Source of the DNA: a virus
Lineage: Duplodnaviria > Heunggongvirae > Uroviricota > Caudoviricetes
DNA length: 64,000 bases
Strand: one strand, 5' to 3'
IMG/VR virus record: IMGVR_UViG_3300020046_006452
Span: 21,296 to 85,295 of that record
This document shows, in pieces, positions 20,593 to 62,920 of this stretch. The translations under genes and the position numbers were made by a program. The notes under the pieces were generated by a model. The model was not told where the DNA came from. It saw only the letters and a program-made list of their open reading frames with translations, and made no database searches. The first letter of the stretch is position 1, and each line of letters opens with the position of its first letter.

Positions 20593-20710
20593 TGCTAAAG
20601 GCGGATGTTTTTAGCGGTGAAATCTTGGATTTGCCACGTTTTTTTGGCTTCACGGGTAGGAGACACCAGGTTGGAGCGATCGTCGCTTAAAACCAGGATT
20701 TTGGATCTAT

Positions 20711-20757
20711 AACCTGTTGATTCTCAGGGAGTTACCGTAATCACCTGAGAATCAAGG
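20711..20757 (-). terminator. 11-bp inverted repeat TTGATTCTCAG / CTGAGAATCAA with 16-nt loop at the 3' end of the metallopeptidase gene
   Basis: perfect stem seen directly; no U-tract. Confidence 0.3.
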
Positions 20758-21262
20758 AGTTAGTGCCGTGCAGTGCATGGAACACTTTAACATCCAAGTC
20801 TACTTGCTGAGGGGTAGCTCCAATCCAATCTAACACGTATGGTTTGATCCTCTCGGTCTTCAGATTGTAGAACAGCCTATTCTGAATGATGTGCATCCAA
20901 ACATAGCGCTTGGCATCCTCCTGATAGGCTAGGTCGACTATACCGTGGAATTTTTCAGCTCGTTTAATTGCCCACTGCTCAGCCACATACTCATCTAGAT
21001 AAGAGAACACTCGCTCTCCCATACTAATGTGTCCTATCTCATGCAAGCACACCATGAAGCTCCAAGTGTCAACTGGTATAGGGAGAAGTACCTGGCGAGT
21101 GTCTCGAAAGGCCTCATAACGACAGCTATCAGGATCCCATGGCATCCACTTACGCACTCGAACCCCTACTAGGTTGAGGTGCTCTCGGACATAGCCTACG
21201 TAGGGTTGTGTTGCTTCTGCTTGTTTTAGGAGTGCCTTAGTGCTCTTCATTGAAACAAACAT
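20741..21262 (-). CDS. putative zinc metallopeptidase (HExxH)
   Basis: 173 aa; MVCLHEIGHISMGE contains an HExxH motif. Confidence 0.45.
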   Translation of the reverse strand: MFVSMKSTKALLKQAEATQPYVGYVREHLNLVGVRVRKWMPWDPDSCRYEAFRDTRQVLLPIPVDTWSFMVCLHEIGHISMGERVFSYLDEYVAEQWAIKRAEKFHGIVDLAYQEDAKRYVWMHIIQNRLFYNLKTERIKPYVLDWIGATPQQVDLDVKVFHALHGTNSLILR

Positions 21263-21482
21263 AGCCCAGCCATTATGTTGGCTGCAACCCCAAACTTAAA
21301 CTGACTTCGAGCGGACAGACCAGATCATTGAAAGCATGCCGAGTACCGATCCAGTGATGATGGTCCAGTTGGACTCATCGATCGTACCCTTAGCTACTAG
21401 AATTGTTCCTACGATGGTCAGTCCGTGGCGGACTAGACCTACCCACTGCTCATATGATAGACTTTTCATGTTGGTGCTGTTG

Positions 21483-27239: not shown

Positions 27240-29546
27240 CTATGCCTGGTGGGAAGACATCAGCATGGCATTCAAGGTAGTGGCAATCTGAGTTACGTTC
27301 TTAGTATCAATTGCCTTGGCACCACTACCATACATCTGAGTGAATGCACTTGAGCACTTCAGTGGTTCATTGTTGTAGGACTCCCTGATGAAGTAGCTAA
27401 GGGTCTTAATACCCAGGGCACCAATCCGCTCTACTTGCTTGCGGGTGTGATGCACTGCTACATTACCATAGTAGTTCATTGGGCCTGCAGGTTCACCATC
27501 AGAGAGGTTGATGAAGTAGCTGTCCAGTGTAGGTGACCCCGGGGTCAAGTGCTTGCCAGTAATCAGAGCATCGAAGCACAATCCCTCTGGTGTGCCTCCA
27601 TCTGGGCTAATGCACCCCAGGGTGGACACCAGGTGGTGGAACTTGTTGCGGCGGCTATCGTAGATGATCATGGTCCTTACTTGCTCGTTGAGGTTCTTGC
27701 GGACATCTACCGACACTGAGATCTTCTGAGCCTTGGAAGCTGCCTTGGCAATTGCAATGGTCATCTTGATGGTCTCGATCCAACGTGATCCACTCATTGA
27801 CCCCGATGCATCCAGTGAGAGGTGAATGTGTGAAGGCTTGCACTGTACGATGTTAGTCTGTGAGAAGATACTCTCAATCCCATACCCTACGTGTGGGATC
27901 CTACGAGGATCAACCTTACCGCTCCTCAGCCTGTTGGTAACTGTTACCCGCTGTTCGGCATGTTGCACCAGCTTACGGCTCAGCAGACCACCCAGCTCAA
28001 TCCCCTGAGTGATTGCTGCAGTGTAGCGACTAAGCCCTACTGCATAGAAGTCTTCACGATTGACACCAAAGTTGTTGGCCTCAGCCAGCTGCTTGTCAAT
28101 CTCGTGCCGCTGATCAGTGGTAGCGTTGACCTTAGCTTGAGCGAGTTTGATGTAGTTCAGTACGTTGGCACTGGTGTAGTCTTGCACAACAGCAACTACC
28201 CCATTGAACTGAGTGGTCTGTAGTTCGAGGTCCTGGGTGGAAAGGCTCTCCAGCTGCTTCTGCATATTCTTCTTAGCCTCCTTCTTCATCCCCTTTCCGT
28301 TGAGGAAGTTGCGCTGTGCATCAAGAGCCCTACGCGCCGCATCCGCTGCCGCAGAAGAGGTGTCCGCAGGTGTGGGTTGATCTTGTGCTGTATCTTGCTC
28401 TTGCTGCTCCTCGGTGTCTTGCTCTTCCAGCTCCTCCTCTTGCTGCTGGCCGAACAAGCTGTTGATCTCCATCTGCTTGCGCATGTTGTCCAACTGCTGC
28501 TCAGTGGGTTGTGGCAGCTCTGGTTGCTCCTCCTCAGGCTCATCCCGATCTTCTTCCTCCTCTTGATCGGCCTCCGGTGGTACACTGGTACCAATGGTAG
28601 GCAGTGGATCTTCACCCCCCAAGAACGAAGGTGGGGGTGGAATGATTGGGTCTTCTACATCCTTCAGCGCTGGTGGTATAGCAGCAGCATTAGCCAGGAT
28701 CACCTCCATCACTTGCAAGGTAGTCTCGATGGTATCCTCAACACTAGTCCAGCGCTGGGGGTTGTTGAGGTCAATTGCTGCGTACACCTCCTTCAGCCCC
28801 TTGAGAGCATTGAGGTCAATAGCTGGGCTGAGGAAGTTGTAGATGTGGAACTCCCAGCTGTACAGGTTACTAGAGTCGCGGTAACGGCTACTACGGATCC
28901 CTCGGATCACATCCTTGGTGTTCCAATAGTGATCGTACAGCTTGTGGTAGTAAGCCTTGTATCCTGGGGAGGTGGAGAACACAAAGTGGTCAATCCTCCG
29001 GTCTTCAATCCAGTTGTGGATATCGTGGATGAAGTGTGTAGCCGACCACACACTAGTAGCAAAGTGCTTGTCAATCTTGATGGCCATCTCCTTGACCTTG
29101 TCGGCCAGGGGAGTCATTGCAAAGGGCTTAGGCTTGAATGTACTGTTGAGTACCTCAAAGTCAGTCAGCAATACGTGTGAAGCTTCGTGCAAGGCCAAGC
29201 CCACCACCACATCGAAGTTCTTGGCACTGATGTCGGAGCTCAAGCAAATGGCCTTACCGTTGGTGAAAGACTGATCACCATACCACACTACCGGTATGTC
29301 CTTCTTGGAGATGATCTTGACAAAGTTGACCACTGCCTTACGGTAGGCATTCAGTTTGATCAGCTCAACTAGGCTGGCACCCTTCTTACCGTACGATCGT
29401 TCAGGCAATGAGGTACCCCAATCATCCTTGTCCATCCAGAACGAAGAGAAGCTTCGATCATCCTTCAGCCCCCTCACAGCCTTGCTACGGGTCCTGGACT
29501 CGATCAGCTTGCGGAGGTCTGCGGTATTTGAGTTTGTGGTCGTCAT
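27240..29546 (-). CDS. CobT-like von Willebrand factor A (vWA) domain protein with acidic linker; N-terminal region carries an HExxH motif
   Basis: MIDAS motif LSLDASGSMSG; ~90-aa D/E-rich linker; VVGLALHEASHVL; ATG at 29546 preferred over the TTG start (29582) in the ORF track. Confidence 0.6.
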   Translation of the reverse strand: MTTTNSNTADLRKLIESRTRSKAVRGLKDDRSFSSFWMDKDDWGTSLPERSYGKKGASLVELIKLNAYRKAVVNFVKIISKKDIPVVWYGDQSFTNGKAICLSSDISAKNFDVVVGLALHEASHVLLTDFEVLNSTFKPKPFAMTPLADKVKEMAIKIDKHFATSVWSATHFIHDIHNWIEDRRIDHFVFSTSPGYKAYYHKLYDHYWNTKDVIRGIRSSRYRDSSNLYSWEFHIYNFLSPAIDLNALKGLKEVYAAIDLNNPQRWTSVEDTIETTLQVMEVILANAAAIPPALKDVEDPIIPPPPSFLGGEDPLPTIGTSVPPEADQEEEEDRDEPEEEQPELPQPTEQQLDNMRKQMEINSLFGQQQEEELEEQDTEEQQEQDTAQDQPTPADTSSAAADAARRALDAQRNFLNGKGMKKEAKKNMQKQLESLSTQDLELQTTQFNGVVAVVQDYTSANVLNYIKLAQAKVNATTDQRHEIDKQLAEANNFGVNREDFYAVGLSRYTAAITQGIELGGLLSRKLVQHAEQRVTVTNRLRSGKVDPRRIPHVGYGIESIFSQTNIVQCKPSHIHLSLDASGSMSGSRWIETIKMTIAIAKAASKAQKISVSVDVRKNLNEQVRTMIIYDSRRNKFHHLVSTLGCISPDGGTPEGLCFDALITGKHLTPGSPTLDSYFINLSDGEPAGPMNYYGNVAVHHTRKQVERIGALGIKTLSYFIRESYNNEPLKCSSAFTQMYGSGAKAIDTKNVTQIATTLNAMLMSSHQA

Positions 29547-29574
29547 GCTTGGTATAGAGCTCGTGCTTTTTGTG

Positions 29575-29690
29575 TAGGGCAAAGGTCCCCCTTCTTGGAG
29601 GCTTGGGCAACAGTAAGTTATGAACCGATAGCTAACTCCCTGAGGCTCAGGGGGAATAAAGTTAATCCGCTGAGCCTCAGTAAGTTAGTC
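29575..29690 (-). promoter_or_regulatory. early promoter/operator cassette upstream of the vWA gene: GGTTCATAAC element, -33 TGTTG, -7 TAnnTTTG-like box, two CTGAG-N-CTCAG palindromes
   Basis: minus-strand read: CCCTGAGCCTCAG ... CCCTGAGGCTCAGGG ... GGTTCATAACTTACTGTTGCC-N19-GGACCTTTGCCC ... ATG. Confidence 0.5.
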
Positions 29691-29778
29691 AAAATCCCGG
29701 TTCTAAGGCACGATCGTCCTCTGGCTGCACCCTGATGCCACCCACAAGGAGATCGTGCCGCAGATCCAAGATTTCACG
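29691..29778 (-). terminator. conserved about 88-nt stem-loop element, copy 1 (3' of the 106-aa gene)
   Basis: AAATCCCGGTTCTAAG-GCACGATCGTCCTC...GGAGATCGTGCC-GCAGATCCAAGATTT; 13-bp stem with one bulge. Confidence 0.45.
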
Positions 29779-29779
29779 C

Positions 29780-30100
29780 CTAATCATCCCCTCCACGCTC
29801 CTTTGCAATACTGCGGAAGATCTTCTCGTCACAGAACGCAGCATTGGACTTTCGGATCATGTTGGAGAACCACGCACAGTACTTTGCTTGCTCCCAAGCC
29901 TCTCGTACTGAGCGGGCTGGAGGTATTAGGAGATCAGGGTCCACAATAGGCTGGCCTTTGCCATCGATCAATGCATACCACATCTGATCTCCTACTTGCC
30001 TTGCTTGCACGTGCGCACCTGGGGCTCGCTTGTCAACGTACTTCTTCAGCTTAGCGAATTCCTTCTGCTGGGGGGTCATTGTTGCTTGCTTCGTCATCAT
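29780..30100 (-). CDS. hypothetical protein between the vWA and AAA+ genes
   Basis: 106 aa. Confidence 0.4.
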   Translation of the reverse strand: MMTKQATMTPQQKEFAKLKKYVDKRAPGAHVQARQVGDQMWYALIDGKGQPIVDPDLLIPPARSVREAWEQAKYCAWFSNMIRKSNAAFCDEKIFRSIAKERGGDD

Positions 30101-30108
30101 GGTGTCGT

Positions 30109-31341
30109 TCAGAATTCAAAGTCTTCAGTAACCGCAGGAGTGCCCATCAGGTTGTCCGCCGTACCATCATTGATGTACTTTTGGATCAACTGCTTGATGA
30201 AGGTACGCTCACTCTGCATCCCACCCTCCTGGGAGTACAGAGGATAGATCAGCACTTCGGCACACTCACTCAAAGTGAAGCCATCGGTGATCAATCCAGC
30301 CATCTCCAGCACACTGCGGGTGGACACTGGAGTAGTGATCCGAGCACTATCACCCATCACCTCAGCCCTGGTGGCCGTAGCGATCTCGGCAAGGTTCTGT
30401 GCTTGCTCCTGCTCGATTGCTGGGAACAGCTGACGCACAAGACCACTCTCCTGGGCAGTGTTGAGGAAGGGGATCTCAATGATCGAGAAGCGATCGATCA
30501 GAGCTCGGTCCAGTACACGTGTTGCAGTGTACTCCGATCCGATGTTGGCAGTGGCAATGAATGACACTGTAGGGTCCACTTTGATCGTTGGAGTCCCCAC
30601 TTGCTCGTCCATGCGCAGGTACCGTTGGTTAGGGTCCAATACGGTCATCAGGATGTTGGCAGCCTCAGGGTGCGCCCTCGAGATCTCGTCCAGCACCACA
30701 CAGGTGTTGGGAGTTTGGATCGCAGTGACGAACGCACTTTGATTGAAGAACGTACCAGCGTCCTTGGCAAAGTGGGTGTTGCCGATCAGTGCTCCCCGTG
30801 GGTCCTGCGTAGCACCTAGGTTGATATAGAACACCTCCTTGCCCATCGCCTTGGCCGCAGCAAAGGCAGTTTGGGACTTACCTGTCCCCGTAGGGCCAGT
30901 CAGCATGATGTTACGCCCCCGGATCACACTGCGGCATATCATCTTCCAGGTCAAGTCAGCGCAGATCAAGCTCTCTGGCCGCTGCTGGGGTGAGGAGTGG
31001 ATCAGCTTCAAGATCGGATCGTTCTCAGCCTTGGCTGCAGCCTTCTTGGCATCCAGCTCCCCCTGTATTGGGGATGCACTTTGGGCCTTGCCAGTGGGGG
31101 TGGAGATCGTGCCTACCTCGGCAAGAGTAGTGCCGGAAGGTACTCGCATCCAGCGGTCGACCTCGGAGACCTTCAACAGCCACTCCTTGCTCTTGAACGC
31201 CCCCTGTATGGTGACGTATACGATCTCCCGGGTGATGTCGCCCCCAGTGCGGACATCGTAGGCTCGGACGGTCAGCTTGCCACCCTTACCAGGTGCTTGC
31301 TTGATCTCGGCCAGAAGGGGGTACTGTTGTACTGTACTCAT
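30109..31341 (-). CDS. CobS-like MoxR-family AAA+ ATPase
   Basis: Walker A GPTGTGKS, Walker B VVLDEISRA, sensor ATAN; ATG at 31341 preferred (the ORF-track GTG start lies inside the promoter motif). Confidence 0.65.
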   Translation of the reverse strand: MSTVQQYPLLAEIKQAPGKGGKLTVRAYDVRTGGDITREIVYVTIQGAFKSKEWLLKVSEVDRWMRVPSGTTLAEVGTISTPTGKAQSASPIQGELDAKKAAAKAENDPILKLIHSSPQQRPESLICADLTWKMICRSVIRGRNIMLTGPTGTGKSQTAFAAAKAMGKEVFYINLGATQDPRGALIGNTHFAKDAGTFFNQSAFVTAIQTPNTCVVLDEISRAHPEAANILMTVLDPNQRYLRMDEQVGTPTIKVDPTVSFIATANIGSEYTATRVLDRALIDRFSIIEIPFLNTAQESGLVRQLFPAIEQEQAQNLAEIATATRAEVMGDSARITTPVSTRSVLEMAGLITDGFTLSECAEVLIYPLYSQEGGMQSERTFIKQLIQKYINDGTADNLMGTPAVTEDFEF

Positions 31342-31417
31342 ATGTGCTTGTGTGTTCGTTTGGACTAGGGCAAAGATCACCCTATTTTGGTTTGGTGCAA
31401 CTGAAAGTTATGAACAA

Positions 31418-31585
31418 GTTATGAACCGCTCCGCTTGTTGCGTTTGCGGAAGTTGACTCGGTCCCTCCACTCCTGGAAGTAGATTGCCGGAATGGCGATG
31501 GCTAGTATTATGACGTACATGGTGCCGAACGCGAGGATGACTGATATGATTGCAGTGAGTGCCTTGATCAGGATAGTTTCCCACA
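31418..31585 (-). CDS. small membrane protein (55 aa; below the ORF-track cutoff)
   Basis: MWETILIKALTAIISVILAFGTMYVIILAIAIPAIYFQEWRDRVNFRKRNKRSGS; ATG 6 nt after upstream stop. Confidence 0.35.
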
Positions 31586-31588
31586 TGC

Positions 31589-32044
31589 TTAGCAGCTTTT
31601 AGCACATTCAGGACCAAGGCGGCTATCGATCGAGGAAGGCACTGTCAGCACCTTACCACATCGAGCGCAGGTAGTTGCCCACATCACCTCGAACCCCTTG
31701 GCAGTGATCGCATCGTGCTGATCACGCAGCAGATTGAGTAGTGCCCACTCCGCAGCGCGGAACTCCACGCTAGTTGTGGCGAACTTACTCTTGGCAGTTG
31801 CCCGCAGGGGCTGGGCTGTACTACCCAGCATCCCGAGGTAGGTGTAGTGACGGGTGTTATCAGGACCGGTCAACACCCCCACTGCATACTGCGCAGCAGG
31901 CGGGGTTTGAAAGGGTCCACCATAACGCCCGGGCATTACGTGGGGCTTGAGCTTGGCCACCTGGAAGGACCACCTGCGACCCTTTGCACCATCGACCAAT
32001 GTGAACCGTGCCTTTCCGGCCTTGAGGATCTCGCTGTGTTTCAT
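31589..32044 (-). CDS. hypothetical early protein with C-terminal zinc ribbon
   Basis: 151 aa; CARCGK..GPEC; own promoter cassette. Confidence 0.45.
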   Translation of the reverse strand: MKHSEILKAGKARFTLVDGAKGRRWSFQVAKLKPHVMPGRYGGPFQTPPAAQYAVGVLTGPDNTRHYTYLGMLGSTAQPLRATAKSKFATTSVEFRAAEWALLNLLRDQHDAITAKGFEVMWATTCARCGKVLTVPSSIDSRLGPECAKSC

Positions 32045-32190
32045 GAAGGCAAAGATCCCCCAACTACAACTAAAGTCAACACCAATTTTCCTCTACTCTT
32101 GGAAGCCTACGGATAAACACCTGAGCCCCAGGAGGATATGTAACCCCCTGAGGCTCAGTCACTTAGTTAACTCGCTGAGGCTCAGCTAGA
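32045..32190 (-). promoter_or_regulatory. early promoter/operator cassette (leaderless; -7 box abuts ATG) with two CTGAGGCTCAG palindromes
   Basis: minus strand: ...TGTTG-N19-GATCTTTGCCTTC-ATG; palindromes at about 32147-32165 and 32173-32190. Confidence 0.5.
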
Positions 32191-32646
32191 TCAGGCCTCC
32201 TGCGCAGGACTCTCCACTTCACTGGTGGCCACTTCGGCTTCCACTTCAGGGGTAGCTTTCGCCTTCTTTGGCGCCTTTGGGGTCTTCACCTTGGCAGCCA
32301 CTGGGGTCTTGGGGACCTTCACCTTGGCGACCTTGACAGGCACCACCTTGGCAGGCTTCTCCGGCAGCTTACCGGTCTCCGCCAGTGCCTTCAAGATCTC
32401 GGCAGTCTCCGCCTTGGAGATCCGCTGCCACTTGGACTCCAGGGTCTCCTTGATCAGGTTGAAGCCGGCCACGTACGCATTGCGCAAGGTCGGGTAGACG
32501 ATCATCTTGCTCAGGTCCTCGACCTCACCCTCGGGGGCTTGGGCATTGAGGGCACGGATTACAGGGTCCTTGCGCTTGGCGCCCATCGCTTGGCAGATGT
32601 TGACGATGCAAGGGTAGGTCAGGGAGGTGTTGTTCTTGGTACTCAT
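32191..32646 (-). CDS. histone H1-like / AKP-repeat basic DNA-binding protein
   Basis: C-terminus KPAKVVPVKVAKVKVPKTPVAAKVKTPKAPKKAKATPE; own promoter with 80-nt leader. Confidence 0.45.
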   Translation of the reverse strand: MSTKNNTSLTYPCIVNICQAMGAKRKDPVIRALNAQAPEGEVEDLSKMIVYPTLRNAYVAGFNLIKETLESKWQRISKAETAEILKALAETGKLPEKPAKVVPVKVAKVKVPKTPVAAKVKTPKAPKKAKATPEVEAEVATSEVESPAQEA

Positions 32647-32763
32647 GGTCTTGTCTTGTTGTTTGTTGTTTTGCTAGCTCCTTAAAGGCTGAGCAGCGTT
32701 TGCCTATGGTTTGTTTGTGTTGAATCAAATATACGCCAACTTTCTCAAGCAGGCAACAGTAAG

Positions 32764-33072
32764 TTATGAACCGATCCGGGTGATCACGATATCGATGTTG
32801 GTAGTGTGGTAGAACCCCGAGGTGTAGACTTTCCACTTCAGTTGATAGCCAGCCACACGCAAGCCCTGGGCGATTCGGTCTTCGAGGTTGAACAGTACGG
32901 AGGCCTTCACCCCCCGGTAGACCCCCCAGAACTTCAGCCTGCGGCCATTAGCGCGGGGTTCGGAGAACGTGCGGTATTCCCCCAGTGATCCATTGCTACG
33001 AAGCTCGATCGCGATGTTGCGCATGATCTTGATCTCCTGCTTATACAGGGGGCAGTCCTTGTTGTGTTTCAT
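32764..33072 (-). CDS. hypothetical early protein
   Basis: 102 aa with own promoter cassette. Confidence 0.4.
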   Translation of the reverse strand: MKHNKDCPLYKQEIKIMRNIAIELRSNGSLGEYRTFSEPRANGRRLKFWGVYRGVKASVLFNLEDRIAQGLRVAGYQLKWKVYTSGFYHTTNIDIVITRIGS

Positions 33073-33165
33073 GAAGGCAAAGATACGGTGTTTTGGCGTT
33101 GAGGCAACAGTTCCAAGGTGAAAAAGTTATGAACCGGTGCTAACTCCCTCAGGCCCAGTGGGTTG
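33073..33165 (-). promoter_or_regulatory. early promoter cassette: GGTTCATAAC, TGTTG-N19-TATCTTTGCCTTC directly abutting ATG, plus degenerate palindrome
   Basis: GCACCGGTTCATAACTTTTTCACCTTGGAACTGTTGCCTCAACGCCAAAACACCGTATCTTTGCCTTCATG. Confidence 0.55.
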
Positions 33166-33399
33166 CATGTAATACGTTGAGTTCCAGTGAGTTCGGGTGT
33201 AGTGCAGGAACTTGGGCACTTTGGCGTTGTCATAGAACGGATCTACCCCCTGGCGCCTCATCTCGCGCGCCAATTGTGGGTGCTCCACCACAAGGGTGTT
33301 CCAAAGGTGCTGTCCCCAGCGGATTCCCTGGCGTTCATAGTGGTCCTTCCAGGTGCAATACGCGGAGGTGAGCCATTGATGTCGTGTTATAGTAGGCAT
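33127..33399 (-). CDS. hypothetical early protein
   Basis: 90 aa. Confidence 0.4.
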   Translation of the reverse strand: MPTITRHQWLTSAYCTWKDHYERQGIRWGQHLWNTLVVEHPQLAREMRRQGVDPFYDNAKVPKFLHYTRTHWNSTYYMQPTGPEGVSTGS

Positions 33400-33404
33400 G
33401 TTGT

Positions 33405-33644
33405 TCAGCAGGTTTCAGGGTGGGGGAACGAACAGAAGTCGCCGTTGGTGCGGGTTACCTGGGCAAGGTACCACTCTCCCCCCTCTTCTTGCTCAACTTT
33501 GGGGACCATAGCCTCGCCTATGTTGCGCAGGCTACGCAGGTCACCATCTTCACACCGCAGCACTCGGGTACGGCCATCGTAGACATTGCGGTACTTGAGG
33601 GTGGAGGGGTACATCGGTTCGGTTTGCAGTTGTGGGCTTATCAT
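33405..33644 (-). CDS. hypothetical protein
   Basis: 79 aa. Confidence 0.35.
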   Translation of the reverse strand: MISPQLQTEPMYPSTLKYRNVYDGRTRVLRCEDGDLRSLRNIGEAMVPKVEQEEGGEWYLAQVTRTNGDFCSFPHPETC

Positions 33645-33647
33645 GTG

Positions 33648-33884
33648 TTACTGGGGGAGTTTGTGTCCTTGATTTGCAGCCGCTTCAAAGGCTGAGTGTA
33701 TGTGCAGGTTGTCAAACAGGTCAGGCTTCTTGCACTGATCGAGGGTCTTAAGCAGGCGTTGGATCAGCTGGGCGTCCTTCTCACGCTCCGTTTCATACAG
33801 GTCGCGCAGTTCGGAAAGGCTCCAAGCGTAGCCCTGCATTTCGGCAAGCCGATCATCGCTGCAAAGGAGGTTAAGGGTGGCCAT
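33648..33884 (-). CDS. hypothetical early protein
   Basis: 78 aa; promoter box 25 nt upstream. Confidence 0.4.
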   Translation of the reverse strand: MATLNLLCSDDRLAEMQGYAWSLSELRDLYETEREKDAQLIQRLLKTLDQCKKPDLFDNLHIHSAFEAAANQGHKLPQ

Positions 33885-34084
33885 GGGATCTCGTTGTGTT
33901 TGTATAAGGCAAAGATACGGTGCTATAGACTAAAGTCAACACCCAAAGTTCGGCATTCGTGGAATCCTAGCTGTAACTTGCTGAGACTGAGGGGGAAAGT
34001 TTTTTCTCTCTGATTGCCAGGCAGTTACGTAGTTGCCCTGAGGATCAGGGGTTTAGCTGTAACTCCCTGAGGCTCAGCACTTAA
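33885..34084 (-). promoter_or_regulatory. early promoter cassette with three CTGAG-N-CTCAG-type palindromes
   Basis: TATCTTTGCC box at about 33897-33915; palindromes about 34002-34012, 34035-34050, 34060-34078. Confidence 0.45.
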
Positions 34085-34175
34085 GGCAAAAAACGGGCTA
34101 TAAACGACGATCGCCCCTTCCCTGGTCTCTGACACCAGGTGGGAGGCGATCGTGCCTTACAATCGAGATTTGAGC
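34085..34175 (-). terminator. conserved stem-loop element, copy 2 (nested hairpin CCTGGT/ACCAGG inside a CGACGATCGCCCC/GGGAGGCGATCGTG stem)
   Basis: same flanks as copies 1 and 3: ...ACGACGATCG...GGCGATCGTGCC...AGATTT. Confidence 0.45.
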
Positions 34176-34652: not shown

Positions 34653-34754
34653 GAAGGCAAAGATACGCTAACTGAGTTCAAAGTCAACGACAACTTTCCC
34701 CTACTCTTGGAATCCCAGGTGTAACTTGCTGGGGGTCAGGGGGTTAACTGCCCT

Positions 34755-41947: not shown

Positions 41948-42305
41948 ACTCCTTACCCTTGGAGGTCAGGAACACCATCTCCTTACCTTGCTCATTCTCG
42001 ATAGTGTTAACTAACCCTTTGTCAATCAGACTCTGCAGTGCAGACTCCATTACACATCGTCGTATAGCATCCTCAGCCTCTTCTTGGTTTACGTTTAACT
42101 CTCCAGTAGAGCACCACTTGTCAAATAAGATCTTGCCAAACACCTTTCGGACTGTGGGGCTATCGGTATCGGGGATGTCTACATAGAAGTTGGTATCTTG
42201 AAGTTCTTGCTCCAACTCATCCAATGCTTGTTCTACTTCTTGTGGGTACATGGTGGTGCTATTTGATTTGGTTTTGTTGAGTGAAATGGTCGGGGGTCGG
42301 GTCAC
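41898..42305 (-). CDS. hypothetical protein
   Basis: 135 aa. Confidence 0.4.
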   Translation of the reverse strand: MTRPPTISLNKTKSNSTTMYPQEVEQALDELEQELQDTNFYVDIPDTDSPTVRKVFGKILFDKWCSTGELNVNQEEAEDAIRRCVMESALQSLIDKGLVNTIENEQGKEMVFLTSKGKECVQYDNGGAVPSIEKF

Positions 42306-42381
42306 TTGGTGGCGGCGTTCAACTCATTGCAAACCGCATTGCGCTCCACCGTGTACGGCCCTACTGCGGTTGTCTCGTTGC

Positions 42382-42993
42382 TCATGGCCTGGGTGTGAGT
42401 TGTTCGATGAGCTTCAGTGCTGCGCCGTAGCGGGCCACCTCTTCCCGTGTGTAGCCTTCCATGCGCCCGACCGCTTCGTATTTGTCCAGCCATCCGGCAA
42501 GCGTGTTGACGTGGCAACCGATGGAGATCACATCGTTGTCGGCCTTGGTGATCGTGTGCTTGCCAAGGCATATCGTCCAAGGGGTGCGTTCAACCCGCGC
42601 ATCCCCGGACACCCGCGCATTCCCGGACACCAGCGCATTCCCGGACACCTGCGCATCCCCGTACACCTGCGCATTCCCGTACACCCGCGCATTCCCGGAC
42701 ACCCGCGCATCCCCGTACACCTGCGCATCCCCGTACACCCGCGCATTCCCGGACACCAGCGCATTCCCGGACACCAGCGCATTCCCGGACACCCGCGCAT
42801 CCCCGTACACCTGCGCATTCCCGTACACCTGCGCATTCCCGTACACCCGCGCATTCCCGGACACTAGTCCTTCGATGCGGGCTGTTTTGTCTACCCTGTC
42901 TGGGTGTTGGACCCATCCGCCACCGTTGGCGTGTTGGAAAAGCTCCGTGTCCTTCATCCACGGGTATTTGGCATTGAGTTCTTCGCGTGTCAT
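42382..42993 (-). CDS. hexapeptide-repeat (left-handed beta-helix-like) protein, about 15 x [G-N/D-A-R/Q/L-V-Y/S]
   Basis: repeat block encoded by near-perfect 18-bp tandem DNA repeats at 42590-42860; unique N- and C-terminal segments; ATG at 42993 (MTREEL) gives ATGA overlap with upstream stop. Confidence 0.55.
42590..42860. repeat. about 15 tandem copies of an 18-bp repeat GCGCAT(T/C)CCCG(G/T)ACACC(C/A/T) (plus-strand reading)
   Basis: near-perfect periodicity of 18 bp; encodes the hexapeptide repeats on the minus strand; explains the open frames on both strands. Confidence 0.7.
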
Positions 42994-43298
42994 GTTGTTG
43001 GTGTGATATTGTGCTTGGTGGCTGCGAGGGAGAGGGCGGCATCGCCATCTATGTATGGGCATTCGTCATAAGTCCTTGCGTATGCACAGGCGCCATCCAG
43101 CGCATCCACCAGCGCCTGAACCGTCGCCCGCAGGCTCTCCAGTTCGGCGTGTGTGGTCTTGCGGTCGGCTTCGTACAGGTCGCGAACCATCACTGCCCCC
43201 GCCACATATCCATGTCCTTTGTCACGGATCAATGGACCGTAAAGGAATGCCTCGCCTATTGCGTCATCGCTCACCAGTAGCTCAAGTGTTGCGCTCAT
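42990..43298 (-). CDS. hypothetical protein
   Basis: 102 aa. Confidence 0.4.
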
Positions 43299-43344
43299 AG
43301 GTAGTGATCAAGATATTCGTAAGAGTCGGGAAGTACGTCGTAGC

Positions 43345-43617
43345 TCATTGGTGGTTAGGGTTACGTGTATTGGAGCAAACAGTACCACCCACCACAATCA
43401 AGGATGCCATATGGCCCTCCTCTGCAGTAGCGAACTTACGCACTAAGGTATGCTTATCGATGTGTTCATCCTCCACCCAAAAGATACCCTCTTGCTCCAA
43501 TTGCTCGGTGGTGGTCTCCAGAGCTAGATAAGTGTCCTGGATACTCCCAGCTACTGAAGTGATTGTCTTCTGAGTCCTCTCGTCGTACGAGATCAGGTTG
43601 AGTACTTCGCGGTCCAT
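43345..43617 (-). CDS. hypothetical protein
   Basis: 90 aa; TATCTTTGAC box about 30 nt upstream. Confidence 0.4.
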   Translation of the reverse strand: MDREVLNLISYDERTQKTITSVAGSIQDTYLALETTTEQLEQEGIFWVEDEHIDKHTLVRKFATAEEGHMASLIVVGGTVCSNTRNPNHQ

Positions 43618-43698
43618 TGTGTTGTTATGCTTTTGCTATTGAGTCAAAGATAAGGCATCGGTTGTGTACTTAGCAACACTAAGTTATGAACACTAATG

Positions 43699-43917
43699 CT
43701 AGCGGTACAGTACTACGAAGTCTCCAAACTCTCGATCAAACACCTCCACTAGGTGCTCGTAGTCCCCAGCTTGCATCTCCTCTATGATTGCCTTAGGGTC
43801 CTTGTCCAGTTGCTTAGCAAGCACCTGAGCGTAACCCATTAGAGCAAAAGCGTTGCCATCAGGTCCAGTGAGGTCAATCTCAATTGGTCCTTGGCGGGGT
43901 TGTTTGTTCTTGATCAT
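43699..43917 (-). CDS. hypothetical protein
   Basis: 72 aa. Confidence 0.4.
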   Translation of the reverse strand: MIKNKQPRQGPIEIDLTGPDGNAFALMGYAQVLAKQLDKDPKAIIEEMQAGDYEHLVEVFDREFGDFVVLYR

Positions 43918-44270
43918 TTGCTCAGGGCCTTTGCTTTGTTTACCTTGGGCTTTGGCATCTCCGAGATCAGCTTGTGATAGAACTGATCCTTACTTAGGGG
44001 TTGACCAAACCTACCAACATCATGGTAATGGCCCCACATATATTCAAAGTTGTCTTTGACTATCTCTTCACTGAGAAAGAGACACCCTGCGTACTGATAC
44101 ACCACTCCCAACTCCAGAGCCAATTGGACATCAAGAGCATTGTTCGTGGTTGGCTCAGGCTCAATATCTAAAGCTAGATCCGGTACCTGGTTTGAGACGT
44201 GTCCCTTGGCCAGGATACACTCCCGATTGAGGTTCAGTGCTACCTCAGCGATTTGCTGCTTTGTCATCAT
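43914..44270 (-). CDS. hypothetical protein
   Basis: start moved to MMTKQQ; the first 33 codons of the listed ORF overlie a tRNA-like element. Confidence 0.4.
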   Translation of the reverse strand: MMTKQQIAEVALNLNRECILAKGHVSNQVPDLALDIEPEPTTNNALDVQLALELGVVYQYAGCLFLSEEIVKDNFEYMWGHYHDVGRFGQPLSKDQFYHKLISEMPKPKVNKAKALSK

Positions 44271-44271
44271 G

Positions 44272-44367
44272 TGAACAAGGTAGGACTCGAACCTACACGC
44301 ACCCTGTGCTTCGCTACCCGAGCTTGCTTCCCTCGGACGATGTGGCTCCCAGTTACACCACTTGCTC
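44272..44367 (-). tRNA. tRNA-like element (about 96 nt) with canonical T-arm GTAGGTTCGAGTCCTAC and GAGCAAG/CTTGTTC acceptor; anticodon region does not fold canonically (9-nt loop)
   Basis: manual fold; acceptor and T-arm clear, D-arm GTGT/ACAT; possibly a type-II or degenerate tRNA. Confidence 0.3.
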
Positions 44368-44416
44368 ATAACGTTATTGACAAATATACAACTTTAACTG
44401 ACTACCTTGCAACCAC

Positions 44417-46534: not shown

Positions 46535-46860
46535 GGTCGGTTAAGAGTTGTTGTCGTGATGTTGGTACTCGGGCTTTCCAGGCTCTGGTCCTACTATCTA
46601 TCTTGCTTTTGATCTTCTCTTGCGATCGAGGCAAAGATAGGCTACTTTTGGTTTGTTTGCAACAGTGGTCTCGATAAGTTATGAACCGAGTTATGAACCG
46701 CTGTTGTTGTTGATTGCTTGTTGTTGCTTTTGACGAAGGCAAAGATACGGTGATCTGGCAGGCTGAGCAAACCCTTTTTGGGCTATTGTTGGAAGGCTAC
46801 CGCTAATCCCCTGAGCCTCAGAGAGTTAGCTAACTACCTAGGTATCAGCAAGTTAGCTAC
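46535..46860 (-). promoter_or_regulatory. double promoter cassette: two TATCTTTGCC boxes, tandem GTTATGAAC direct repeat, one CTGAGCCTCAG palindrome
   Basis: boxes about 46625-46640 and 46728-46746 (second lacks an adjacent ATG); GTTATGAACCGAGTTATGAACC at 46676-46699; palindrome about 46807-46822. Confidence 0.45.
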
Positions 46861-46863
46861 CTC

Positions 46864-46948
46864 AAAATCCCGGTTTTAAGCGACGATCTCCTCCTTGGTG
46901 GCACCTTGCCCCAGGCAGGAGGAGATCGTGCCGCAGATCCAGGATTTG
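46864..46948 (-). terminator. conserved stem-loop element, copy 3
   Basis: AAAATCCCGGTTTTAAG-CGACGATCTCCTCC...GGAGGAGATCGTGCC-GCAGATCCAGGATTT; 12-14-bp stem. Confidence 0.45.
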
Positions 46949-48758: not shown

Positions 48759-49130
48759 TTACCAGCTATAGTTGCTGTAGTAGCTTGGCTTAGGAGCACT
48801 CTTGCTAGCAGCCTTCTTACCTTTCTTGGTGATCTCGTACTTGCCAGTAGCCACACGCTTCAGCTTGCCTTCGTTGGCAAGATACCTCATCGAGCGACCT
48901 ACTGAGAGGTTGAACTCAAAGTTGTCCATCTCAGTGGTGGGGATGCGCAGCCTTCGGCGAAGAACTGGATTGCTCACAGTGTCCTCTTTTGTAGCAGCAT
49001 TCAGGATACGCTCGGTCCACGGTTTACGATTACTCATACTTGTCTGTTTGTAACTTTGTTTGAAACTGTCAAACTTGCAGCTTCTCATCTTTGATGTGGG
49101 GTGAGAAGGTTTGCCCACTTTGTTGTTCAC
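48759..49130 (-). CDS. putative DNA-binding protein
   Basis: 123 aa, basic, helix-turn-helix-like region. Confidence 0.3.
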   Translation of the reverse strand: MNNKVGKPSHPTSKMRSCKFDSFKQSYKQTSMSNRKPWTERILNAATKEDTVSNPVLRRRLRIPTTEMDNFEFNLSVGRSMRYLANEGKLKRVATGKYEITKKGKKAASKSAPKPSYYSNYSW

Positions 49131-62481: not shown

Positions 62482-62852
62482 AAATATAGTATCATTATCG
62501 GTTGAGATTACACCGTTTCTAACAGACCCTTCGTACCTACATTCCACTGAGGTGCGACCCTCTAGGTTTAGTACTTATCCACTGACTCTTTCGGGTCAGT
62601 CGCCTGCCATCGCTGCCTTTGATTATCCTGAGGGGCATTGCTCAGTATCACAGTAACTTTACTCGACCTTTTGTCTCGTCCTCTGCTTTGCGGGCATTCA
62701 ACTACGCTTCAAACGCTTGTCTAAGGATCTGCCTACTCGATCAAATCTCTCGGCCTTGCGAGCTTTGAGACTCCTGTTCATCCGTAGATGCAGGAATTAA
62801 GCGACTTTTCGTCACTGTGTGTCCCCGGTCTTTGCTTTTAATCATGTTTTAT

Positions 62853-62920
62853 AGCGATGGAATCGAACCACCAACCTATTCCTTAGAAGGGAATCGCTCT
62901 ACCAATTGAGCTAACTTTGT
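62853..62920 (-). tRNA. tRNA-like with D-arm GCTCAATTGGTAGAGC, anticodon arm ATTCC/CTTCTAA/GGAAT (TCT) and T-arm GGTGGTTCGATTCCATC but no pairing acceptor stem found
   Basis: manual fold; acceptor 5' ACAAAGT has no complement 3' of the T-arm; degenerate tRNA or mis-resolved ends. Confidence 0.3.

Follow-up and report, generated by a model that had tools for sequence, protein, structure and literature searches.

The 64,000-nucleotide stretch analysed here, called the window in the following, comprises positions 21,296 to 85,295 of the IMG/VR record IMGVR_UViG_3300020046_006452, a virus of the Caudoviricetes, and a short palindromic sequence recurs in groups between its genes. What do these palindromes do? 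They could be recognized in double-stranded DNA by a protein of the phage or of its host, fold into hairpins, or provide short homologies for recombination. The answer favoured here, with a confidence slightly better than even, is that they are predicted operators in duplex DNA for a sequence-specific phage protein of two-fold symmetry, possibly a winged-helix protein of 92 amino acids, which would activate transcription from upstream. All long open reading frames (ORFs) of the window are on the minus strand, and sequences are described on this gene strand.

A preliminary description had presented the palindrome as an 11–15-bp perfect dyad, CCCTGAG-G/C-CTCAGGG, and the dyad is indeed strongly enriched: exact CTGAGSCTCAG occurs six times (29640, 29670, 32148, 32175, 34067, and 46811) against 0.11 occurrences expected from dinucleotide shuffles, and none of 100 such shuffles reached this count. 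The dyad is only the core of the site, however. Side-by-side comparison of the copies revealed a full unit of 25 bp, the bipartite palindrome TAACT-nn-CTGAG-n-CTCAG-nn-AGTTA with fixed 2-nucleotide gaps. When units were scored on the 20 specified bases, with the mean of 200 dinucleotide shuffles as expectation, 14 units reached at least 15 of 20 (0.53 expected), 12 reached at least 16 of 20 (0.04 expected), and tandem pairs 24–32 bp apart numbered seven (0.01 expected). A chance origin of the palindromes is ruled out by these shuffle counts. The positions listed previously correspond to exact or degenerate copies, the latter with cores at 32121, 33148, 33981, 34010, and 34038, and the spacing given as 25–35 bp was measured as 27–30 bp within the arrays of the window. 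Three details had to be abandoned: perfect cores number only six, so that by no means every site is a perfect dyad; the CCC...GGG extension is not conserved in the metagenomic relative L004; and no copy resides in any tRNA or tRNA-like gene, the sole core-like string in a tRNA (45254) having two mismatches, which is chance level. Copies at 34729 and 46838 and the array at 20710-20762 were absent from the earlier list.

The units form seven groups at gene boundaries (20.7, 29.6, 32.1, 33.1, 34.0, 34.7, and 46.8 kb), each with one to four units arranged head to tail. Coding sequence makes up about 85% of the window, yet 12 of the 14 unit centres fall between genes. No units were found in the 10 kb beyond the left end of the window. 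As had been proposed, the sites precede promoters, which are of the sigma-70-like type and lie on the minus strand. The genes next to which most arrays are located encode, in the order of the minus strand, a DUF6011 protein (31589-32044), a CobS-like AAA ATPase (30109-31380), and a CobT-like vWA protein (27240-29549). The units and arrays, with centres numbered relative to the inferred transcription start, are the following:

29633..29657, promoter-proximal unit of the CobT cassette, core CTGAGGCTCAG at 29640-29650, centre at about -70
29663..29687, distal unit of the CobT cassette, core at 29670-29680, centre at about -100
32114..32192, three-unit array upstream of the DUF6011 gene (units 32114, 32141, and 32168; cores 32121, 32148, and 32175; period 27), centres at -81, -108, and -135
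33141..33194, degenerate unit 33141 (16/20, centre -80) and weaker unit 33170 (14/20), both overlapping the 3' end of ORF 33127-33399
33974..34084, four-copy array of units 33974, 34003 (degenerate), and 34060 and a core-only copy at 34031; unit 33974 is the non-palindromic variant CTCAGtCTCAG on the gene strand
34722..34746, single unit with the degenerate core CTGACCCCCAG (gene strand), centre at -81, with a G+C-rich hairpin and its T-run (34784-34766) ahead of it
46804..46855, two-unit array (46804 and 46831) with the perfect palindrome AGTTAGCTAACT as the link between the units, centres at -81 and -108
20710..20762, two-unit array in the structural-gene region

The accompanying promoter-like and terminator-like features are:

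29582..29610, minus strand, promoter-like site of the CobT-like gene, TTGCCC, 17-nucleotide spacer, GACCTT, then TGCC
32052..32079, minus strand, promoter-like site, TTGACT, 16-nucleotide spacer, GATCTT, with an ATG 7 nucleotides past the -10 hexamer
33912..33939, minus strand, promoter-like site, TTGACT, 16-nucleotide spacer, TATCTT
34660..34687, minus strand, promoter-like site, TTGACT, 16-nucleotide spacer, TATCTT
46742..46770, minus strand, promoter-like site, TTGCTC, 17-nucleotide spacer, TATCTT
29689..29774, 34086..34171, and 46862..46947, minus strand, 86-nucleotide terminator-like elements

The cassettes follow a common order of hairpin, units, a conserved block (GGnTTCCAAnAnTAG or GGTTCATAACTT), and a sigma-70-like promoter of the pattern TTGACT or TTGCCN, 16–17-nucleotide spacer, TATCTT, and then TGCC. 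The hairpin with a T-run that precedes the promoter is the 86-nucleotide element in three cassettes and a short G+C-rich hairpin in a fourth. In the 86-nucleotide element, an outer stem (AAATCYTGG/CCGGGATTT) encloses a long hairpin (GGCACGATC...GATCGTGCC), and the T-run TTTTGA comes next; the copy of the element at 29689..29774 lies directly upstream of the CobT-cassette array. Compensatory changes were found at four of the 19 predicted pairs among seven copies from the window and its relatives L004 and L007, and Rfam contained no match for the element; it probably is a terminator and possibly a bidirectional one. Because the arrays are positioned after terminator-like hairpins with T-runs, they probably are little transcribed. 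The distance to the promoter is nearly fixed, as the centre of the proximal unit is at -81 or -80 in five cassettes, among them one whose intervening sequence differs, and at -70 in the CobT cassette, nearer to the promoter by one helical turn. Altogether the unit centres span -70 to -135, and none of the units overlaps the core promoter. Six or seven of the roughly 20 promoter-like cassettes of the window bear units. The 20.7-kb cassette is inverted as a whole relative to the others, and an inverted partial copy of the 86-nucleotide hairpin (about 20615-20705) accordingly stands after, not before, its array.

The same arrays are found in other phages. The CobT protein has hundreds of metagenomic relatives. 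L004, whose CobT is 71% identical, shares synteny with the window in a mosaic pattern of 70–96% nucleotide identity and has kept the arrays. The array at 32114..32192 has a 100% identical counterpart in L004, and L006 and L007 carry it at the orthologous site; arrays occupy orthologous positions upstream of the DUF6011 and CobT genes in L005, L006, and L007, whose CobT proteins are about 41–43% identical to that of the window. In alignments with these relatives the units appear as conserved blocks amid diverging surroundings. Distant contigs from IMG/VR and public metagenome assemblies (mostly JGI), with CobT proteins about 27–40% identical, carry an AT-richer unit, TAACTnnYTGATnATCARnnAGTTA, in the same tandem-pair arrangement; bipartite units with the core YTGAK-n-MTCAR occur as tandem pairs upstream of promoters in dozens of distant CobT-encoding contigs. 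Of the 84 distinct tandem pairs, 36 are spaced at 25 bp, 28 at 27 bp, and 10 at 29 bp. The pairs of the AT-rich relatives lie just upstream of TTGNNN-N17-TATATT promoters; their unit centres precede the first base of the -35 hexamer by 22, 33, and 43/44 bp, and a terminator often stands between the two units. The order of unit, T-run terminator hairpin, unit, and promoter was observed in L012, L082, L185, L198, L199, L207, L228, and others, and the right arm of the first unit is part of the terminator stem in the AT-rich relatives. The motif is conserved in genomes of 37% to 55% G+C and tracks phage lineage, and the base identity of the units is held across phages that lack any other nucleotide similarity.

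Some further features of the promoters were noted. The block GGnTTCCAAnAnTAG is situated between the proximal unit and the -35 hexamer at 32093-32104, 34701-34712, and 46783-46794, with a similar sequence at 33953-33964; it is also present in L006, L007, and L240 and is thus kept where CobT is only about 41–43% identical. The box GGTTCATAACTT has nine gene-strand copies just upstream of -35 elements (29615, 31405, 31416, 32761, 33124, 38618, 39444, 43681, and 46676) and one on the other strand, and is conserved in L004, L005, and L158. As its end, TAACTTActg, resembles the left arm of the unit, this box may be a half-site. The block TGCCTTC after the -10 hexamer is conserved in eight promoters. 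In four minus-strand genes, with starts at 32044, 33072, 34652, and 39402, the ATG is located exactly 7 nucleotides past the -10 hexamer (TATCTT TGCCTTC ATG), which suggests that their mRNAs are leaderless or nearly so. A second promoter family, TTGCWnnGTACAC...TATATT or TATCTT, has about 10 gene-strand copies (starts in plus-strand numbering 36529, 38579, 39405, 43642, 44378, 48656, 53906, 55214, 56448, and 61415), none of which has a palindromic unit.

A palindrome that is conserved in this manner could act as a folded single strand, and the units might then be hairpins, either RNA stem-loops that serve termination, stabilisation, or processing at the 3' ends of the transcripts from upstream, or cruciforms extruded from DNA. 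The units are self-complementary, adjacent units can be paired into a stem of about 20 bp, and the predicted RNA fold of the 29.6-kb cassette is very stable (z = -6.1). In the 32.1-kb cassette, which has no 86-nucleotide hairpin, the pair at 32158-32121 (15 pairs, T-rich tail) was noted as resembling a terminator. Stop codons or terminators immediately precede the units, and the overlap of the unit's right arm with the terminator stem in the AT-rich relatives fits an RNA structure as well. Opposed to this, a U-run is absent after most units, dedicated terminators already are present upstream, and tRNAs were the sole Rfam matches at the gathering threshold, with none at E <= 1 within 29.5–34.9 kb. 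Signatures of pairing were looked for as well. Half-changes in 158 distinct units were of the G.T type in 63 and of the A.C type in 73 cases; there is no excess of G.T over A.C and therefore no RNA-type tolerance on either strand. The 2-nucleotide gaps can pair in only about 28–31% of the 158 units. Positions 12 and 14, which flank the centre, are strongly conserved though unable to pair across a 1-nucleotide loop, and they show no within-genome covariation (Mantel–Haenszel odds ratio 0.88), while weak within-genome covariation was detected for positions 8 and 18 (Mantel–Haenszel odds ratio 4.8, chi-square 4.3). In the 84 distinct pairs of adjacent units, the complementarity of the unspecified positions is no higher than in permutations, and the centre positions form 33 Watson–Crick pairs where 34.4 are expected. 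This lack of complementarity led to the rejection of a long hairpin joining adjacent units. The variant CTCAGnCTCAG, in which the dyad and with it the stem is broken, recurs at several independent sites, and the constancy of the primary sequence across very distant phages is unlike the evolution of structural hairpins. What is conserved in the units is thus sequence, not pairing, and hairpins are considered unlikely to be their function. The pairing tests, the fixed promoter distance, and the position after terminators together favour recognition of duplex DNA by a symmetric protein.

A special form of hairpin is found in the promoters of the phage N4 virion RNA polymerase, which have a stem of 5–7 bp and a 3-nucleotide loop. 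The core of the unit could be drawn in this way, as CTGA-GSC-TCAG with a stem of 4–6 bp and a 3-nucleotide loop. A gene for the giant RNA polymerase is absent from the 64-kb window and from the 10 kb beyond its left end, though, and the largest ORFs of the window, of about 980 amino acids, are tail-like. Moreover, units are found before as well as after terminators and in both orientations, and ordinary sigma-70-like promoters follow them. Cores that act as N4-type promoters therefore are extremely improbable.

Short repeats at gene junctions could also promote recombination. The PeSLs of T4-type phages are described as composite terminator/promoter motifs at exchange points (PMC4122927, PMC2839356), and the arrays might belong to comparable mobile or recombinogenic cassettes that give short homologies for gene shuffling, with protein binding being secondary. 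Whole cassettes of hairpin, units, and promoter are repeated six to seven times in the window, once inverted. The identity between the window and L004 changes in blocks (70–79%, 83%, and 94–96%, plus the one cassette that is 100% identical), and the block boundaries in the comparison with this one close relative are intergenic or in cassettes (33882, 31585/31428). Recombination requires only homology and has no need of a dyad, however, and it explains neither a base-exact palindrome in otherwise dissimilar phages nor the fixed promoter distance. This possibility, which is compatible with the operator interpretation rather than an alternative to it, is regarded as quite unlikely to account for the units.

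The search for the motif outside this phage group bears on the question whether a host protein is recruited. The IMG/VR scan for the core plus flank yielded single matches in three contigs, two of which look like chance, and led to L001, which proved to be a genuine relative and has five units. When paired perfect cores were scanned for, only unrelated repeats appeared, both in IMG/VR, where these apparently are coding tandem repeats, and in 185,579 representative bacterial and archaeal genomes, where they are apparently coding by inspection and where the TAACT/AGTTA flank was present at one locus only, likely by chance. The motif therefore is neither a host genomic repeat nor CRISPR-like. A search of isolated phages with a synthetic double unit retrieved only chance or coding matches, the CobT region of Microcystis phage Mel-JY01, whose CobT is distantly related to that of the window, contains no units, and a full-text literature search for the core and for the AT-rich form TTGATAATCAA found nothing relevant. 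Sites for a recruited host protein of the Fur, FNR/CRP, or IHF type were nevertheless considered. The AT-rich form TTGATAATCAA includes the TGATAATCA that forms the centre of the classical Fur box as well as FNR-type half-sites, TTGAT/ATCAA; its right half, ATCARnnAGTTA, fits the IHF consensus WATCARNNNNTTR; and the upstream positions of the units are like those of class I CRP sites. On inspection, though, the half-sites are separated by 1 bp and not by the 4 bp of FNR sites, the IHF-like halves abut instead of flanking a bend region of about 9 bp, and there is only one Fur hexamer per strand. The CTGAGSCTCAG form of the window has lost these resemblances and kept the flanks. Since, in addition, the paired-core scan of the 185,579 genomes revealed no such arrays and the motif follows phage lineage despite differing G+C content, a host protein is very unlikely to be the ligand.

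A protein encoded by the phage itself was sought among about 45 ORFs of the window, which were scanned against Pfam and/or PHROGs. The sole DNA-binding signal came from the product of ORF 48759-49130, which has weak matches to Mrr_N and to a transcriptional-regulator PHROG. Its start probably is Met32 at 49037, as indicated by its homologues, resulting in 92 amino acids. The feature is:

48759..49037, minus strand, candidate cognate factor, a 92-amino-acid winged-helix protein putatively linked to the units

The preliminary description had named this ORF among the small basic/HTH proteins of the region to be considered for binding, and this suggestion agrees with a confidently predicted winged-helix fold: the AlphaFold2 model (mean pLDDT 87) shows a winged helix and a C-terminal helix. 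The best matches among solved structures are pNOB8 AspA, the PhiH1 repressor-like protein, PadR, and MarR, which are small DNA binders of the dimeric type; all matches are weak (TM about 0.6, E about 1e-2, 12–29% identity), as is the match of the protein's profile to the sequence of the PhiH1 repressor-like protein (E = 0.013). Homologues in nine distant loci are 52–61% identical, compared with about 30–40% for the CobT proteins there, and in eight of these nine loci a unit lies at most about 180 bp from the end of the winged-helix gene. In L163 a unit is found just upstream of the -35 hexamer of this gene's own promoter, and in L243 arrays directly follow the gene. No homologue of the protein was found in isolated phages. 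From this conservation and neighbourhood, the winged-helix protein is the best candidate for the cognate factor. ORF 32191..32646, the other regulator that had been suggested, showed no DNA-binding signature in the scans. The DUF6011 protein is a weaker, second candidate; unit arrays stand upstream of its gene in the window, L004, L006, and L007. This protein ends in a zinc-ribbon-like CxxCG...GPxCxxxC and has no solved relative or annotation; its homologues are located at 2577-3032 in L004, 392-838 in L007, and 1-157 in L243.

The units may then work as follows. A dimeric phage factor, most likely the winged-helix protein, would bind each 25-bp unit, neighbouring dimers would cooperate across the junctions of 0–4 bp, and distal sites would take additional dimers. 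The arrays occupy the stretch that separates one transcription unit's terminator from the sigma-70-like promoter of the following unit, and the bound protein would act on RNA polymerase from upstream in the style of a class I activator, so that the CobS/CobT module and neighbouring small genes would be switched on. Such an action from upstream is suggested by the proximal centre at -70 or -81 and by the 11-bp steps of the centres in the relatives. Centres at -70 to -135 suit an activator or an insulator better than a classical repressor operator, and given this position the factor probably is an activator; it may instead repress, or insulate against read-through from upstream. The cooperative dimeric regulator on paired dyads that had been proposed before fits the comparative evidence of sequence conservation and fixed promoter distance; the 25-bp size of the site, the association with terminators, and the one inverted cassette depart from the original picture.

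Several observations weigh against this model. Besides the stable RNA fold of the 29.6-kb cassette and the covariation of positions 8 and 18, no obvious promoter was seen at the 20.7-kb array. Because of partial paralogy among the cassettes, the constant -81 spacing may reflect inheritance and not selection. The 11-bp steps in the relatives rest on a handful of independent promoter contexts, and one group of relatives, with units centred 27 bp upstream of the -35 hexamer, falls outside these steps. With the inner half-sites only 6 bp apart from centre to centre, the geometry is unusual for the two recognition helices of a winged-helix dimer. As regards the candidate protein, its gene in the window is 1.9 kb from the nearest array and has a promoter of its own without a unit, and the close relatives L238 and L241 possess the gene and no units within 10 kb on either side. 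Finally, the evidence from neighbourhood and co-occurrence comes from within one related phage group, and shared ancestry could thus explain the link between the protein and the units.

A broader reading would be that the unit and the winged-helix protein constitute an undescribed transcription switch of a large uncultured clade of CobS/CobT phages from freshwater, estuarine, and marine environments, which insulates the upstream transcription unit and activates the next. The protein would be made from an ordinary promoter and would load onto the arrays at terminator-promoter junctions. This extension of the operator model is tentative and must be called doubtful. Regulation in large uncultured environmental phages is almost unknown, and here a single motif marks a specific subset of promoters. 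The candidate factor and the motif would offer a direct route into the temporal programme of the clade, and the motif provides a sequence signature for spotting related contigs and regulated genes in metagenomes. Should the protein act solely as a repressor or an insulator, the finding would amount to an ordinary phage operator system.

The setting of the arrays is phage-like. Tail and baseplate genes are located below 27 kb and about 20 tRNA genes between 44 and 64 kb; a profile scan of 10 large ORFs gave one baseplate wedge match and one tape-measure match, the other eight having none. No near match to the window was present among the 50,697 phage records of INPHARED, and the search of IMG/VR with the AAA ATPase for close relatives found none. 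The G+C content is 52–56% at 28000-34000 and 42000-44000 compared with 45–49% elsewhere in the window, and the former stretch coincides with the CobS/CobT module, home of most arrays. Within overlapping ORFs at 42539-42918 there is a tandem repeat of about 20 copies with a period of 18 bp, which probably encodes a hexapeptide repeat. ARAGORN predicted a 97-nucleotide tRNA-Pro at 44271-44367, which lacks Rfam support and overlaps ORF 43914-44369, and missed a tRNA at 62848-62920 that was detected by Rfam.

Among known systems, the operators OR1-3 and OL1-3 of phage lambda are comparable in that odd-length, dyad-symmetric sites are arranged head to tail with short spacers suited to cooperative dimers, and in that the presumed ligand is a small DNA-binding protein encoded by the phage. 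They differ in being 17 bp long and confined to one immunity region, whereas the bipartite units described here have 25 bp and occur in seven places. Overlap with the core promoter, one defining feature of lambda-type repressor operators, is not seen with centres at -70 to -135, and no lysogeny functions were noticed in the window. The stoperators of cluster A mycobacteriophages are 13-bp asymmetric sites that are oriented with transcription, distributed genome-wide, and bound by one phage repressor. Like the units, they are a single short site repeated many times between genes, where transcription units end, which suggests a block of read-through, but the sites of the window are symmetric, arrayed, and restricted to seven gene junctions, six of them in two short stretches.

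Regarding the candidate protein, AspA, PhiH1 repressor-like, and PadR-type proteins are dimers that bind to palindromic DNA, from which AspA spreads onto neighbouring sequence. The predicted structure of the window's protein resembles theirs in its size class of 80–90 amino acids and in the winged-helix core with a C-terminal helix; it differs in that the fold matches are weak and no partition genes were seen in the window. The sites of class I activators of the CRP type are centred near -61.5, -71.5, or -82.5. The proximal centres at -70 or -81, a helical turn apart and upstream of a sigma-70-like promoter, and the 11-bp steps in the relatives are alike, whereas the sequence and the half-site spacing are unrelated to those of CRP/FNR sites, the array period of 25–29 bp corresponds to non-integral helical turns, and no CRP-family protein was found.

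The cassettes resemble the PeSLs (PMC2839356, PMC4122927) in that a sigma-70-like promoter comes after a stem-loop terminator and that this combination recurs between small genes; a location at the boundaries of mosaic blocks, as in the comparison with L004, may be a further similarity. Going by the abstracts, PeSLs have no conserved palindromic array between terminator and promoter, and the 10 large ORFs scanned gave no evidence that the phage of the window is T4-like. The putative switch would fill the same role as MotA/AsiA of T4 with a different architecture. In kind, the system is an ordinary phage regulatory system, of which the window provides a new example.

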